Assembly: GCF_044647545.1 (NCBI RefSeq)
Contig: NZ_CP172818.1
DNA from: Escherichia coli
Lineage (GTDB): Bacteria; Pseudomonadota; Gammaproteobacteria; Enterobacterales; Enterobacteriaceae
Strand: one strand, 5' to 3'
Length of the DNA stretch: 64,000 nucleotides
In this document: positions 27,437-34,982 of the stretch, piece by piece
Position numbering within the stretch: the first letter of the stretch is position 1
Layout of the letters: every line of letters begins with the position of its first letter
Position numbers and translations under genes: made by a program
The notes under the pieces: model-generated
Databases searched by the model: none
Told to the model about the DNA's origin: nothing
The model's input: the letters and a program-made list of their open reading frames with translations, nothing else

Positions 27437-28011
27437 CTACGGCAGTGCTGGCCATTCAATATCCTGTGCAGTTGACGTATCAACACGGTTCAGCAATACC
27501 CGATACTTTTTCCATGCTTCCAGCAACGGGGTTTCTTCCTCCGTTGCAATTTCCAGATCTGCAGCATCCTGAAGCGGCGCAATATGCTCACTGGCTACCT
27601 GCATCAGGTTGTTTTTTTTTCTTCCGCTTCCCGTATCCGAAACAGTTTTTCTGCTTCCTCATCATTCACCCAGGATACGCCGTCCCACTTCTGATACTCC
27701 CCTGCTGGCGACAACCAGGTGACATTCTCTGGTAGCGGTCCGAGTTCAGAAATAAACAATGCGTCCCCCGACGCCACGTCATAGACCGTTTTACCACGAT
27801 GGTCTTCAACAATATTCCACGATTCATTTTCACTGTTAAAAACTGCCACAAAGCCAGCAGGAATTTCCGGTGGGGCGATATCTGTAGAATTAGCTGGCAG
27901 CCCTGTATGAGGTGGAATATATGCGTCACCTTCACCAATAAACTCATTAGTTCCGGCCAGCAGGTTATAAATTTTTACGGTACGTGATTGTTCACTCATT
28001 CTGAATGCCAT
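27437..28011 (-). pseudogene. tfaQ: tail fibre assembly protein TfaQ, frameshifted at a 9-nt homopolymer (27612-27620)
   Basis: N-terminal frame stops after ...EAEEKKTT at 27604; the C-terminal part ([22 protein letters not shown]...DIEWPALP*) continues in another frame to a stop at 27437-27439. Confidence 0.7.
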
Positions 28012-28934
28012 TATGCAAGCCTCACAATATAATTAAATGCGATGTTTTTAACGGTGTTTTCCGCGTTACCAGCAGCGTTAACGGTGATGGTGTGTCCATG
28101 TGAACCAATCTTAACAGAGTGCGTATGAGCGCCAATACCAACAGTGTGTGCATGTGCCCCAGCACTTGTAGCGGTACCTGATACTGAGTGGGTATGTGCG
28201 CCAGAAGAAGGCACAGTTCCATTCCCCACCACCGTGCCACTTGATGAACCATCCAGCCAGTCGAAATTCATACCGCCACTGTTTGGTCTCCTTAATGGAA
28301 CGGTATGAGTATGTGCGCCAGCACTATTTGCAGTACCAGATACATTGTGGGTATGTGCACCTGTGTTATTCGTTGATTTAGTACCGTAATCAAACGACGA
28401 TGTGGTTTTCGTACCCAAATCCGTACTGGATGCGCTGGCACTGTGGGTGTGCGATTTAATGCCATCCTGTTCCTGAGACAATACGGCCCGACCACTGGCG
28501 GGTTTGCCCTTGATTGTCCAGCCGCGCATATCTGGAATAACACCAGAAGGATAGGCAATAGCCAGTTTCGGATATGCTGCCTTATCAAACGTCTGCCCCT
28601 GCATGATTGCATAACCTGCAGGTGGCGTATCTGATGGCCACGGGATTGGTGCACCGACTGGATAAAACTCTGCAGGAGGATGAGCCGAGGTGTAAAGCTG
28701 CGCCCACGGCGACCAGTTTGCGTCGGTCGTATCCCGTCGTGAACGAATAAATGCCGGAGCATGAGCACCGCTTGTACCACTCCAGCCGATGAGTAACTCA
28801 CCTTCGCCAACGGCTGTCATCCCTTTCAGGTGAATGATATTTCCATACGCTGTTGGATATCCGTTGTTATACACCTCGTATAACTCAAGACCTGCTGCCC
28901 CCTGCGTATTGTCTGTCAGCGCGGTTATATTCAC
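28011..28934 (-). CDS. stfQ: side tail fibre protein fragment StfQ (YdfN); Gly/His-rich repeats
   Basis: 307-aa ORF with repeated [11 protein letters not shown]-type units; stop overlaps tfaQ start (TAATG); the 5' end overlaps nohQ so the true start is uncertain. Confidence 0.65.
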
Positions 28935-29454
28935 TCAGCAACCCCGGTATCAGTTCATCCAGCGCGGCTGCTTTGTTCATGGCTTTGATAATATCCCGTT
29001 TCAGGAAATCAACATGTCGGTTTTCCAGTTCCGGAAAACGCCGCTGCACCGACAGGGGGAGCCCGTCGAGAATACTGGCAATTTCACCTGCGATCCGCGA
29101 CAACACGAAAGTACAGAATGCGGTTTCCACCACTTCAGCGGAGTCTCTGGCATTCTTCAGTTCCTGTGCGTCGGCCTGCGCACGCGTAAGTCGATGGCGT
29201 TCGTACTCAATAGTTCCTGGCTGGAGATCTGCCTCGCTGGCCTGCCGCAGTTCTTCAACCTCCCGGCGCAGCTTTTCGTTCTCAATTTCAGCATCCCTTT
29301 CGGCATACCATTTTATGACGGCGGCAGAGTCATAAAGCACCTCATTACCCTTGCCACCGCCTCGCAGAACGGGCATTCCCTGTTCCTGCCAGTTCTGAAT
29401 GGTACGGATACTCGCACCGAAAATGTCAGCCAGCTGCTTTTTGTTGACTTCCAT
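28885..29454 (-). CDS. nohQ: terminase small-subunit (Nu1) homologue NohQ, 189 aa with altered C-terminus
   Basis: [46 protein letters not shown]... as in lambda Nu1; C-terminal residues diverge, consistent with a deletion junction. Confidence 0.85.
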
Positions 29455-29630
29455 TGTTCATTCCACGGACAAAAACAGAGAAAGGAAACGACAGAGGCCA
29501 AAAAGCTCGCTTTCAGCACCTGTCGTTTCCTTTCTTTCAGAGGGTATTTTAAATAAAAACATTAAGTTATGACGAAGAAGAACGGAAACGCCTTAAACCG
29601 GAAATTTTTCATAAATAGCGAAAACCCGCG

Positions 29631-29642
29631 AGGTCGCCGCCC
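29631..29642. other. cosN cohesive-end site, within a lambda-like cos region (about 29455-29700)
   Basis: aggtcgccgccc is the reverse complement of lambda cosN GGGCGGCGACCT; flanks match my recollection of the lambda left end (cosB) and right end (cosQ side). Confidence 0.75.
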
Positions 29643-29841
29643 CGTAACCTGTCGGATCGCCGGAAAGGACCCGCAAAATGATAATAATTATCATCTGCAT
29701 GTCACAACGTGCATCTACGCCATCAAACCACGTCAAATAATCAATTATGACGCAGGTATCATATTAATTGATCTGCATCAACTTAACGTAAAAACAACTT
29801 CAGACAATACAAATCAGCGACACTAAATACGGGACAACCTC

Positions 29842-30075
29842 ATGTCAACGAAGAACAGAACCCGCAGAACAACAATCCGCAACATCCGCTTTCCTAACCA
29901 AATGATTGAACAAATTAACATCGCTCTTGATCAAAAAGGGTCCGGGAATTTCTCAGCCTGGGTCATTGAAGCCTGCCGCCGGAGACTGTGCTCAGAAAAA
30001 AGAGTTTCTCCTGAAGCAAACAAAGAAAAGAGTGACATTACTGAATTGCTCAGAAAACAGATCAGACCAGATTGA
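29842..30075 (+). CDS. ynfO: Qin prophage protein YnfO, 77 aa
   Basis: 77-aa ORF MSTKNRTRRTTIRNIRFPNQMIEQ... Confidence 0.75.
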   Translation: MSTKNRTRRTTIRNIRFPNQMIEQINIALDQKGSGNFSAWVIEACRRRLCSEKRVSPEANKEKSDITELLRKQIRPD

Positions 30076-30131
30076 AGCAATTTAGATAATCGTGCAGACT
30101 ACGCCCCTCATATCACATGGAAGGTACCACA

Positions 30132-30542
30132 ATGGCTCAGGTTGCCATTTTTAAACAAATATTCGATAAAGTGCGAAATAATTTAAACTATCACTGGTTT
30201 TATTCTGAACTAAAACGTCACAATGTCTCACATTACATTTACTATTTAGCTACAGAGAATATTCATCTTGTTCTTGAAAACGATAATACGGTTTTAATAA
30301 AAGGACAGGGTAAGGTTGTAAATGTAAGATTTTCAAAAAATAAATGCCTTATAGAAGCCACCTTAAAAGGATTCAAATCAGGAGAGTTATCATTTTACGA
30401 ATACAGGAAAAATCTTGCTACAGCAGGGGTTTTCAGATGGATTACAAATATCCACGAAAACAAAAGGTATTACTATACCTTTGATAATTCATTACTCTTT
30501 ACTGAGAACATTCAGAACACTACACAAATATTTCCGCACTAA
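30132..30542 (+). CDS. ydfO: Qin prophage protein YdfO, 136 aa
   Basis: Start at [13 protein letters not shown]... Confidence 0.8.
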
Positions 30543-30731
30543 ATCATAACGTCCGGTTTCTCTCACTCCTGAGCCGGACTGCATTGGTTTAATAAAAACC
30601 ATCGACAATCGAGATTTATATCTATTCGGTAATGTTTAAATATAACAAAACCCCGTAAAAACGAGGTTTATGGGTAATTTGTATTGTTGAATAGCATCTG
30701 ATGAGAAATTGATGCTAATACTATAAACATG

Positions 30732-30905
30732 CTAGATTAAATCAATCTTGATATCATAGCTTTCAAGACCAGTCATTTTTTCCCGTGCAGTAAACTGGAT
30801 ACTGGTAACTTCTTTCCCGGTCTTTTTCTTAAGCTCAATGATTTTTTTTGTTATATATTCAGAAATATCTGCTTCTGTTTTTGTTTTTAACTCTTCAATG
30901 TTCAT
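30732..30905 (-). CDS. gnsB: GnsB (GnsA/GnsB family), 57 aa
   Basis: MNIEELKTKTEADISEYITKKIIELKKKTGKEVTSIQFTAREKMTGLESYDIKIDLI. Confidence 0.85.
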   Translation of the reverse strand: MNIEELKTKTEADISEYITKKIIELKKKTGKEVTSIQFTAREKMTGLESYDIKIDLI

Positions 30906-31077
30906 CATTTCCTCTTTTAGTCTGTTATGACTGTCCTGGTACACAGTAGTGTCAATTATATGGAGCAAACGTATAAAAGATAAGATGAAACATCGCAATA
31001 ATCAACATACGACGGTCTAAATTTCACACAAACAGATAAAGATGATTATCATTTATTATCAATGCATTAGAATCAAA

Positions 31078-31308
31078 TCAATTCAAGAGTCTCATTGCTG
31101 CTTCCAGAATTTCTTCTGAAGTTACATGTCGATCCGCTGCTACATAAATGACTTTATGATCTCCGGTCAGAGATGGAAACCCTGCAGCCATTACAGTGAG
31201 GTGTGTTGTTTCGCCATTTGGATATTCACGCATGATGGTGTTAACTCCGGTCATCACTGGCACTACCATTGCTGGTTCAGAGTTAAAAAAAACTATTATT
31301 TTTTTCAT
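31078..31308 (-). CDS. ynfN: Qin prophage small protein YnfN; start uncertain
   Basis: 89-aa ORF; several in-frame Met candidates (MKKIIVFF..., MREYPNG...). Confidence 0.5.
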   Translation of the reverse strand: MKKIIVFFNSEPAMVVPVMTGVNTIMREYPNGETTHLTVMAAGFPSLTGDHKVIYVAADRHVTSEEILEAAMRLLN

Positions 31309-31579
31309 AATGTTACCGTAATATGTGAGTATCCATCGACTAGACACTAAGCAAAAAAGCTCCCGAAGGAGCCTTCATTTTCACTTTCTTAAATCTAACG
31401 ACAGATGGCTAACATTTAAGTATTGTGAAATATTATCAAATGTAATCATCATTGATTTACAAAAGATACATTTTGCCCCGAAAGGATTTCTGTCAGAAAC
31501 ATCAAAAGATGATGTTCTATACTGAGAACCATGGCAACACGGGCATCTAAAGTGAATATGGTTTGTAATATTTTCTACC

Positions 31580-31792
31580 TCAAAGTGCCACTACATGAAC
31601 AGCTGCAGGGCCTTTAGGTCCGTTCTCAATACCAAATTCGACTTCCTGATTCTCAGTTAACGTTTTGAAATCGTTGCTCTGAATAGCTGAGAAATGCACA
31701 AACACATCTTTGCTACCATCTTTCGGCGTGATGAAACCAAAACCTTTTTCAGGGTTAAACCATTTCACTAAACCAGTCATTTTGTTAGACAT
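31580..31792 (-). CDS. cspI: cold-shock protein CspI, 70 aa
   Basis: [38 protein letters not shown]...; long AT-rich upstream leader. Confidence 0.9.
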
Positions 31793-32156
31793 CATTATTA
31801 CCTTTTGAAGAAGTTAGCCCTTGGGCAGAATGGTCCGAAAAAAAAATATCAGAGAGAAAAACCAACAAGGAAATCTCAAGAGGTACAAATAATAAAATTA
31901 TAACAATGACTGCTTCAGATAATTTTGTAACAAACCAGAACACCATTAACGCATGATTAACCAACCATAGCAAGGATTACTTTTGTAAAGAAAAACACAC
32001 GAATGAAACAATAGCTTTATTTATTAATAAAACGTGTCATTCTGTCTAATGACCTTTTATCTTACCCTTAAGATTTCAAGGATTTTGACTCATGGAAGAG
32101 TCCTTTTTATTTAAATTTCACATTCAGCGCTAAAAATAATCCGATTTAATATTAAT

Positions 32157-33180
<1,024 letters not shown>

Positions 33181-34103: not shown

Positions 34104-34466
34104 TTGATTTTATTAGTAACAAGTATTTTTTATATTTTAATAATATATTTAAAGCAGATAATAAAAAACCCGCCTGAGCGGGTTTGAGATTGTGGTGCTT
34201 TTTGTGGGAGTCATCCACTTACGCACTTTGTTTTGCCATGCCAGCAGTTAGCTTCTGCTGTAAAACTATTCATGCAGCAAACCTGCACTTCACCACAATG
34301 GTTAGCATACTTTTCCTGATTAAGATTTTGCCAAATATGCTAGCCATTGTTTCATGTATTGGACCTCCTTACTTTTTATTAAAGAGATCCAATATTCACT
34401 ACTCTGTCCGTATCTCTACTCAGGCATCAGCCTTCTTCGTTATCGTATACAGACGAGCGATGAATT

Positions 34467-34682
34467 TTAATCAGTAATGATGACATTTGCTGCTGCAGGA
34501 CCTTTAGCACCACTCTCTATAGAGAAGGTAACCTTTTGACCTTCAAATAAGGTTCGATAATTATCATTCTGAATCGCAGAAAAATGCACAAACACATCTT
34601 TACTACCATCAACAGGAGAAATAAAGCCGAAACCTTTATCAGCGTTAAACCATTTTACTAAACCAGTCATTTTATTTGACAT
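34467..34682 (-). CDS. cspB: cold-shock protein CspB, 71 aa
   Basis: [38 protein letters not shown]... Confidence 0.9.
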
Positions 34683-34982
34683 TCTACATTCCTTAACTTG
34701 AGCCTTTCGGCATAAATGGTTTGCATAACAGAAACGACTTCGTACTTAATTGGAGAGACTCAAAGAAGGAATAAGTGAATAACACCTGAAATGAGAACTG
34801 CTTTAGTAAACTACTTCGTATATCGTCTGTTCTTCAAACCGACGCAATCATTAACGCATAGTTGAACATATGAAGCAATGTTTATTTTAGACATCCAGCC
34901 ATCTTCAACCCCATCAAAAAACTATAGCTTTCTTCAGGAACGTGTGTATAGTGCGCCAAGTTATCAGTATTAAGGAATTTTT

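Follow-up and report, generated by a model that had tools for sequence, protein, structure and literature searches.

The locus and its setting

What are the four small genes that lie between cos and the lysis genes of an Escherichia coli prophage, and do they belong together? The window, a stretch of 64,000 nucleotides from an E. coli genome (RefSeq assembly GCF_044647545.1, contig NZ_CP172818.1), carries ynfO, ydfO, gnsB and ynfN in an interval which a preliminary description, made from the sequence alone, took as a single cluster of phage cargo genes (morons) at 29842-31347. All four open reading frames are found where that description put them, ynfO and ydfO on one strand and gnsB and ynfN on the other (Table 1). 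The placement between cos and the lysis functions is borne out as well. On one side is an exact cosN, AGGTCGCCGCCC in reverse orientation, which is the reverse complement of λ GGGCGGCGACCT, and on the other are the lysis-side genes rzpQ, rrrQ, ydfR and essQ, from 32157 onwards. The DNA was also said to be AT-rich. This is true of roughly 30050-32150, where GC is 0.30-0.40; nohA and the lysis genes have 0.46-0.55, and ynfO itself about 0.42.

Table 1. Features of the interval between cos and the lysis genes, in window coordinates
Feature	Coordinates	Strand	Description
nohA	28885-29454		truncated Nu1; PF07471, E=3e-100
cosN	29631-29642	-	exact 12-base λ cohesive-end sequence; upstream of nohA
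ynfO	29842-30075	+	77 aa; YlcI/YnfO (DUF3950); PF13132/NF041551
ydfO	30132-30542	+	136 aa; DUF1398; PF07166
Mosaic junction between modules	30580-30598		left and right parts match different phages
Hairpin AAACCCCGTAAAAACGAGGTTT	30648-30674		T-rich tails on both strands; from a consensus scan only
gnsB	30732-30905	-	57 aa; GnsA/GnsB family; PF08178
Candidate gnsB promoter	30977-31005	-	TTGATT, 17-nt spacer, TATCTT; from conservation
ynfN	31078-31308	-	76 aa, intact form; phrog_3425
ynfR remnant	31340-31378		shortened here by a TAG codon; overlapped by the terminator
Putative intrinsic terminator	31353-31372	-	GCTCCTTCGGGAGC then T6; 45 nt upstream of ynfN; read from sequence
ynfQ	31381-31569	-	62 aa; YmcF-like zinc-ribbon small protein; non-ATG start; from RefSeq annotation of homologues
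cspA-type thermoregulator leader and cspI	31534-31951 (cspI CDS 31580-31795)	-	head of the cold-shock unit

The host element is Qin, a λ-type cryptic prophage inserted at ydfJ, which here lacks any head genes and is unable to excise (PMC3105296). Of 5426 complete E. coli genomes, 4837 contain a match to a 3.5-kb region covering the genes, and all four genes are already catalogued in E. coli K-12 as Qin passengers. Little is at stake by way of discovery, as the genes are annotated in K-12, one with a PDB structure and one with a published phenotype. The statement that they have no established function fits ynfO, ydfO and ynfN, which were still listed as uncharacterized in 2024 (PMC11551758), but not gnsB, whose phenotype has been described (PMC10607373).

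Are the genes real? Because family HMMs match the products over their full length, and because dN/dS is 0.16-0.34 for ydfO, 0.18 for gnsB and 0.05-0.11 for ynfN, the open reading frames are not chance products. These ratios clearly point to purifying selection on the three genes. One might think that some of the frames, ynfO above all, are functionless relics in decay, which seem conserved through linkage to cos and recent sharing. The N-terminal DNA of ynfO is nearly identical among phages whose ydfO genes differ at dS of 0.46-0.70, so that its selection signal is unreadable, and we found no report of ynfO expression or function in the literature. A stop codon truncates the neighboring ynfR, ynfN is frameshifted in some loci (below), and the prophage is captive in its chromosome. 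The selection on ydfO, gnsB and ynfN argues otherwise, as do their intactness in the window, their presence in viable phages, and the coverage of the YnfO family by curated Pfam and NCBIfam models. We judge this relic reading to be unlikely.

Two probable convergent modules

One cluster or two? We think it probable that the interval consists of two independent accessory modules, module A (ynfO-ydfO) and module B, a cold-adaptation block, which are convergent and meet at a shared hairpin terminator. The cluster would then be two modules, not one. YnfO stands upstream of YdfO in 78 of 80 YdfO loci, none of the 80 showed the cold module of GnsB, YnfN and CspI, and about eight GnsB loci continue into Nu1 or YnfO without any YdfO. 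The mosaic junction falls between the two gene pairs: up to query position 1126 the sequence shares 98.5% identity with phages Kati and Chlobot, and from query position 1144 onwards it matches HannyBb at 100% and mEp460_ev081 at 99.9% identity. The first of two terminator-like hairpins, at 30648-30674, likely serves as the shared terminator of the convergent units. The second, at 31353-31372, is conserved, being kept in divergent loci via compensatory changes. A promoter scan of the region returned 8 sites against 10.1 expected from shuffled sequence, that is, no excess.

Classical lambdoid morons include λ bor and lom, and the morons of HK97 and HK022 as defined by Hendrix and colleagues. Like these, the present genes would be dispensable cargo amid conserved phage genes. 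They occupy the usual moron site, from Rz to cos, have a GC below that of the flanking phage genes, lie next to terminator-like hairpins, are variably present among syntenic relatives (the 80 YdfO and about eight GnsB loci, where the modules come and go independently), and, going by the published data on a related phage (below), are at least in part expressed in lysogens. They differ in their products. The products of bor and lom are envelope proteins with known virulence phenotypes, whereas those encoded here appear, by inspection, to be small cytoplasmic proteins without signal sequences. The moron reading of the preliminary description is thus supported. The same genes, in the same order, occur in λ, PhiR42_1 and Tritos. 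In Tritos lysogens ynfN and cspI are expressed 27-fold and 93-fold over the prophage background, and gnsB is absent from the genes expressed (PMC9928086).

Module A: a gene pair shared with λ

Both genes of module A point away from cos and run antisense to the late operon of the phage; λ bor has the same orientation. The pair is carried by λ itself, as a 64-aa YnfO homologue and lambdap78, a "putative envelope protein", with 85% and 76% identity to YnfO and YdfO, respectively. The right end of λ (the YlcI/YnfO homologue, a ybcW-like ORF, lambdap78 and bor) and the ylcI-ybcW-ybcV genes of DLP12 have the same position between Rz and cos, again antisense to the late genes, and lambdap78 is dispensable, being non-essential by CRISPRi (PMC10695390). 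There are differences. In λ, DLP12 and Tritos an opposite-strand ybcW intervenes between the two genes, whereas the window lacks both ybcW and bor, has a different ydfO allele, and bears, on the far side, an inserted cold-shock module. The presence of the pair in λ means that λ genetics could be used to study it, and a function for YdfO or YnfO, if found, would close one of the few remaining gaps in the λ genome map.

What kind of protein is YnfO? It passes the cut-offs of both its family models, with 74.7 bits against 25 for PF13132 and 35.7 bits against 30 for NF041551. Its residues 1-50 hardly vary, in contrast to a hypervariable C-terminal tail. However, dS in ynfO is at most 0.08, so the N-terminal conservation may merely reflect the low DNA divergence next to cos, and because of that low divergence selection at the protein level cannot be read. 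A faint resemblance suggests that YnfO is probably a small ribbon-helix-helix (RHH) DNA binder. In an hhalign comparison with a hand-entered set of RHH reference sequences, YnfO scored 18.2 (P=0.002; none of 200 shuffles scored as high) at a probability of 8%. RHH repressors and antitoxins such as Arc, Mnt, CopG, the NikR N-domain and the HicB C-domain have a pattern of strand, helix, G-x-S/N turn and helix, to which the YnfO core RNIRFPNQMIEQINIALDQKGSGNFSAWVIEACRRRL conforms; its alignment with residues 10-36 of Arc and 6-42 of NikR is in register. YnfO nevertheless falls below every curated RHH model threshold, and its DNA binding, target site and dimerization are putative. Ten members of the YnfO family had no match to an RHH family in Pfam at E up to 10, a PDB search with the family profile returned no RHH match, and the match to the HicB-like phrog_497 is weak (E=0.16). 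As an RHH protein, YnfO would regulate the ynfO-ydfO unit. The sole inverted repeat upstream of ynfO is the palindrome GATAATAATTATCATC at 29680-29695; we considered it as a YnfO operator and make no such claim.

YdfO is better defined. Its reading frame extends from 30117 to 30542 on the + strand and gives 141 aa from 30117 or 136 aa from 30132; the latter start has the better Shine-Dalgarno sequence (GGAAGG) and is the RefSeq choice in the other genomes examined. The product matches DUF1398 (PF07166, E=3e-43) and the structure 2HH8 (E=1e-69), in which a helix-helix-three-strand unit is internally duplicated. YdfO is a soluble protein with a duplicated alpha/beta fold of its own, for which the structural neighbors included no informative one. 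At least 70 IMG/VR contigs carry an allele 100% identical to the window's. For the variable center of the protein we considered diversifying selection and ruled it out: dN/dS there is 0.20-0.44 with high dS, and the variation is therefore due to old divergence.

Is YdfO a structural protein? The preliminary description had set homology to structural phage proteins against its own reading, and formally such homology exists, as YdfO matches phrog_413, labeled "head protein", at E=1e-89. The same label is attached to YdfO homologues in the RefSeq records of HK629, HK630, DE3 and ev099, and ydfO adjoins cos and Nu1. The label has, however, neither structural nor genetic support. YdfO resembles no capsid or packaging protein in PDB or BFVD, its λ homologue is non-essential, the gene runs antisense to the late genes, and it persists in a prophage from which all head genes have been lost. 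To our knowledge the head proteins of λ are fully catalogued, which also speaks against such a role. That YdfO is a head or packaging protein is hardly credible, and we regard the PHROG label on DUF1398 as unsupported.

Might ynfO and ydfO instead form a type II toxin-antitoxin, abortive-infection or superinfection-exclusion pair, with an RHH antitoxin or repressor upstream and its effector downstream? The genes are small, co-oriented, 56 nt apart and together in nearly all of the YdfO loci, at a site that is a known hotspot for lysogenic-conversion genes. YnfO joins a conserved RHH-like N-terminus to a hypervariable tail, as do many antitoxins, and its one PHROG hint is HicB-like. Yet the partners do not co-vary. 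Identical YnfO proteins are paired with YdfO alleles that are only 79% alike, which disposes of the idea that the YnfO tail follows the YdfO allele. Moreover, the homologues in λ and DLP12 are separated by ybcW, and the selection on ydfO is purifying rather than diversifying. The downstream gene, ydfO, belongs to no known toxin fold or family. PADLOC-DB 2.0 gave no match for three of the four proteins and, for YdfO, a Csx23 match too weak to be credible (E=0.025, 12.6 bits), and no known toxin or defence fold was recognized among the proteins. The proposal that these genes are superinfection-exclusion or defence candidates thus found no backing, and we consider a toxin-antitoxin or exclusion pair quite unlikely.

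A stress function had been suggested as well. The only published claim of this kind, that overexpression of YdfO increases resistance to oxidative stress (PMC4077768), cites as its source (reference 32) a work on YfdK, YfdO and YfdS of CPS-53 which does not deal with ydfO; the claim is a mix-up of the names YdfO and YfdO, and is unsupported. The gene is inducible: qPCR showed 116-fold induction by ionic liquid (PMC4077768), and ydfO responds to induction of DicC (PMC11430063). Our best guess is that YdfO is expressed in lysogens and acts in host physiology, and not in phage morphogenesis or defence. A bolder proposal is that ynfO-ydfO is a lysogenic-conversion module under RHH control and serves a genuine cellular function, such as phage exclusion or tolerance of envelope or solvent stress, which has been overlooked because the fold of YdfO has no known relatives. 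We give this little credence; if true, it would concern a module that is conserved beside cos in λ itself and that most E. coli genomes contain.

Module B: gnsB, ynfN and the cold-shock unit

Module B is the proposed cold-adaptation block. GnsB matches PF08178 over its entire length (E=2e-33, positions 1-54 of 54), so that it is a full-length member of the GnsA/GnsB family, and it matches the GnsA structures 4XO1 and 4XO2 at E=8e-20. Its gene has a strong Shine-Dalgarno sequence (AGAGGA), and within the ynfN-gnsB spacer, which otherwise diverges, the hexamers of the candidate promoter stand out as conserved among alleles only 74-78% identical to the window's YnfN. Overexpression of gnsB, the sole basis of its phenotype, raises unsaturated fatty acids (PMC10607373), and gnsA and gnsB plasmids rescue cold-sensitive fadR relA mutants (bioRxiv 2024.03.27.586906). 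One would expect gnsB, behind its own conserved candidate promoter, to keep membranes fluid in the cold through unsaturated fatty acids.

The chromosomal cspG-ymcF-ymcE-gnsA locus of K-12 has the same gene order and direction as cspI-ynfQ-ynfN-gnsB, with DNA identities of 74% between cspG-ymcF and cspI-ynfQ and 73% between gnsA and gnsB, and GnsA and GnsB share an overexpression phenotype. The slot next to gnsA is held by ymcE, and here by ynfN. Is YnfN then a partner of GnsB, as a neutralizer of a toxin? GnsB is called an addiction-module toxin in RefSeq, and the Pfam family is named GnsAB_toxin. YnfN fills exactly the ymcE slot, both proteins have 76 aa, and linkage is strict (80/80 one way, 78/80 the other way), with gnsB behind ynfN wherever the ynfN loci were examined. 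The resemblance stops there. Blastp found no similarity between YnfN and YmcE, and we rejected homology of the two; YmcE is hydrophobic, whereas YnfN is unrelated, soluble and beta-rich. Furthermore ymcE and gnsA overlap, but 170-230 nt separate ynfN from gnsB across loci (172 nt in the window), with the candidate promoter in between, and upstream of gnsB we found ynfN and no overlapping YmcE-like gene. K-12 tolerates a frameshifted ynfN beside an intact gnsB, and gnsA and gnsB plasmids rescue growth, not stop it. A toxin-antitoxin-like pair is rather improbable for ynfN and gnsB.

What is the proper form of YnfN? The limit of 31347 which the preliminary description gave to the cluster is only that of a GTG-extended version of the reading frame. 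Translation from the conserved ATG start at 31308 gives 76 aa, which match phrog_3425 over 76 of 76 positions. The annotated 51-aa YnfN of K-12 is a frameshift remnant, in which the T8 tract within 31282-31296 has become T7; the real protein has 76 aa. Frameshifts are found in K-12 and in 10 of 65 loci. All the same, the dN/dS values indicate that ynfN is under strong purifying selection. The predicted fold of YnfN is beta-rich, with five strands and a C-terminal helix.

How might ynfN be expressed? The gene apparently lies at the far end of a cold-shock unit, cspI-ynfQ-ynfR, which ends at or reads into it. At the head of the unit are a leader that scores 109 bits against the Rfam RF01766 gathering threshold of 78 and cspI, whose product has a cold-shock domain (PF00313, E=2e-31). 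A transcript from cspI would run via ynfQ and ynfR to the intrinsic terminator, and read-through would deliver ynfN. Cold-shock proteins are known antiterminators; therefore cold should raise read-through into ynfN. A bolder proposal, to which we again give little credence, is that the hairpin upstream of ynfN is a Csp-sensitive attenuator, by which ynfN would be gated by cold. Besides the expression data from Tritos lysogens, two reports bear on the unit. YnfR-SPA is cold-induced (PMC6001520), and AZT co-induces cspI 6.5-fold, ynfQ 5.9-fold and ynfN 5.8-fold, with similar dependence on SspA (PMC11228462).

Prophage setting and gene content

The window holds a Qin-type cryptic lambdoid prophage inserted at ydfJ, from which the complete head and tail morphogenesis region has been deleted, as in K-12 Qin. 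Among complete E. coli genomes, 4837 of 5426 match 29000-32500; the top match is strain BS-01 (97.8% identity), and K-12 MG1655 is about 93% identical, so the DNA does not come from K-12. The preliminary description read ynfO, ydfO, gnsB and ynfN as an AT-rich cluster of moron genes between cos and lysis, and that reading is right: GC is 0.30-0.40 across the cluster versus 0.46-0.55 in the flanks, cosN is an exact λ site, and the lysis genes start from 32157. The four ORFs lie where it placed them, save that 31347 is the start of a GTG-extended ynfN rather than the conserved ATG. Their family assignments are unambiguous. All of the cluster is already annotated in K-12 and λ, and what the present analysis adds is minor.

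Features of the cos-lysis interval
Feature	Position	Strand	Description
cosN	29631-29642		exact λ sequence, upstream of nohA
nohA			Nu1 gene, truncated; downstream of cosN
ynfO	29842-30075	+	DUF3950 / YlcI_YnfO
ydfO	30117/30132-30542	+	DUF1398, E=3e-43; PDB 2HH8
Mosaic joint	30580-30598	.	directly after ydfO; switch of phage matches
Hairpin	30648-30674	.	T-rich tails, both strands; meeting point of convergent units
gnsB	30732-30905	-	GnsAB, E=2e-33
Candidate gnsB promoter	30977-31005	-	conserved TTGATT/17-nt/TATCTT
T8 tract in ynfN	31282-31296	-	T7 in K-12 MG1655
ynfN	start 31308	-	conserved ATG; phrog_3425, 76/76 positions matched
ynfR remnant	31340-31378	-	small cold-induced protein gene; overlaps terminator hairpin
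Intrinsic terminator	31353-31372	-	ynfN start 45 nt further on
ynfQ	31381-31569	-	intact, 62 aa, YmcF-like, CxxC...CxxC motifs
cspA thermoregulator	31534-31951	-	Rfam, 109 bits vs gathering score 78

Several observations concern the surroundings of the cluster. At 28011-29454 (-) the Nu1 homologue nohA leads directly into a tail-fibre fragment (ORF 28011-28934), and a match to Rfam family IS009 at 27471-27668 (-; 204.7 bits, E=2e-50) overlaps the tfaQ tail-fibre-assembly region. Between cosN and ynfO lies a 16-bp near-perfect palindrome, GATAATAATTATCATC (29680-29695), the sole inverted repeat detected upstream of ynfO and possibly an operator. A second cspA-type thermoregulator (34451-34843, -; 158.8 bits) occupies the cspB position, so that the prophage bears several cold-shock units: cspB, cspF and cspI, plus ydfK in relatives.

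Two modules

The cluster is two modules rather than one, ynfO-ydfO on the one hand, and the cold-shock block cspI-ynfQ-ynfR-ynfN with gnsB on the other. On IMG/VR contigs YnfO is upstream in 78 of 80 YdfO loci and cold-shock genes were seen in none of the 80, while about eight GnsB loci continue into Nu1 or YnfO without YdfO. The interval is itself mosaic: phages Kati and Chlobot match its left part at 98.5% identity, and on the right it is 100% identical to HannyBb and 99.9% to mEp460_ev081. Viable lambdoid phages carry these genes too, as a phage genome search showed; PhiR42_1 has the full order Nu1, cos, ynfO, ydfO, gnsB, ynfN, csp, Rz, R, ydfR, S. In λ, a 64-aa YnfO homologue, lambdap78 (a DUF1398 gene recorded as "putative envelope protein") and bor all lie antisense to the late operon; a ybcW-like ORF runs in the opposite direction to these three.

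The cold-shock module and ynfN

What is the true extent of ynfN? The genuine gene is the 76-aa form, as its N-terminus is invariant and its dN/dS is 0.05-0.11 at dS above 1, codons 1-25 included. YnfN belongs to a tiny family of 52 clusters, drawn from E. coli and Citrobacter. In K-12 MG1655 (locus L167, 4455-4700) the shorter T tract shifts the frame, so that what is annotated as YnfN, 51 aa long, represents the tail of the broken gene; among the loci compared, 55 have T8 and 10 have T7. Phage Tritos has an intact 231-nt ynfN ORF, yet the short form is annotated.

Downstream of the thermoregulator the order is cspI, ynfQ, the ynfR remnant, then ynfN. A TAG codon shortens ynfR in the window to 12 codons, where K-12 has TAT. 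The annotated start of ynfQ is not ATG, GTG or TTG, so an ORF lister misses it. The terminator is preserved by compensatory changes in loci whose YnfN is 74-78% identical to the window's, and Csp proteins are reportedly transcription antiterminators. We infer that ynfN lies at the distal end of the cspI unit and is reached by read-through; in the cold, Csp antitermination would favour read-through of the terminator into ynfN. In K-12 exposed to AZT, cspI, ynfQ and ynfN rise 6.5-, 5.9- and 5.8-fold and depend on SspA to a similar degree (PMC11228462), and YnfR-SPA increases upon cold shock (PMC6001520). In lysogens of Tritos, a phage matching the window's region, ynfN and cspI stand 27x and 93x over the prophage background (PMC9928086).

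Overexpression of gnsA or gnsB increases unsaturated fatty acids and rescues cold-sensitive mutants (PMC10607373; bioRxiv 2024.03.27.586906). The gene gnsB comes next after ynfN in all 80 YnfN loci, at 170-230 nt, and the spacer is poorly conserved apart from the two hexamers and 17-nt gap of the candidate promoter; judged by these elements, gnsB likely has its own promoter. The chromosomal paralogue of the locus, cspG-ymcF-ymcE-gnsA, has flanks of 73-74% DNA identity but a different middle gene, YmcE and YnfN being unrelated. That ynfN sits where ymcE does beside gnsA is the single argument for a ynfN-gnsB toxin-antitoxin pair, which we consider improbable, as K-12 combines a frameshifted ynfN with an intact gnsB.

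The ynfO-ydfO module

Residues 1-50 of YnfO are nearly invariant and the tail is hypervariable. The DNA encoding its N-terminus has barely diverged (dS at most 0.08), which makes protein-level selection unreadable there. The core can be read as ribbon-helix-helix (RHH)-like: when hhalign was run against seven RHH proteins with hand-entered sequences, YnfO 13-39 aligned with Arc 10-36 (score 18.2, P=0.002, 0/200 column shuffles as high). HicB-like phrog_497 gave a weak match (E=0.16), and curated RHH models and PDB sequences gave none. From this sequence comparison, YnfO is plausibly an RHH protein.

In the fold of YdfO, a helix-helix-three-strand unit is duplicated in tandem (P=0.003, 0/100 shuffles); a BFVD search with YdfO returned no matches. 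With 196 representatives at 50% identity, the family is small; YdfO alleles differ by 21-30% in protein, with dN/dS of 0.16-0.34. An ionic liquid induces ydfO 116-fold (PMC4077768), ydfO is among four DicC-responsive Qin genes (PMC11430063), and lambdap78 is non-essential (PMC10695390); PMC11551758 counts ynfO, ydfO and ynfN among the uncharacterized genes.

The suggested defence or superinfection-exclusion role found no support in a PADLOC search. Homology to structural proteins, which had been named as grounds against the moron reading, is formally indicated by the "head protein" tag on DUF1398 proteins (PHROG 413; RefSeq NC_019711, NC_019723, NC_042057, NC_049953), yet nothing found supports that label. 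The idea that YdfO increases resistance to oxidative stress, often repeated and stated for its overexpression in PMC4077768, is likewise rejected. It originates from Wang et al. 2010 (PMC3105296), where YfdO of CPS-53 is described and ydfO is mentioned nowhere; yfdO and ydfO are also interchanged in PMC9181523.

YlcI/YnfO is encoded on many ENA contigs of ~3.5 kb (protein matches P0077-P0172). Nanopore sequencing uses a λ-derived 3.6-kb control DNA. These contigs, and the YlcI/YnfO/DUF1398 records or mentions ascribed to Staphylococcus aureus, Bacillus, a spider, a fungus and Arcanobacterium (PMC11206351, PMC11457142, PMC11171008), look like contamination by that control DNA.
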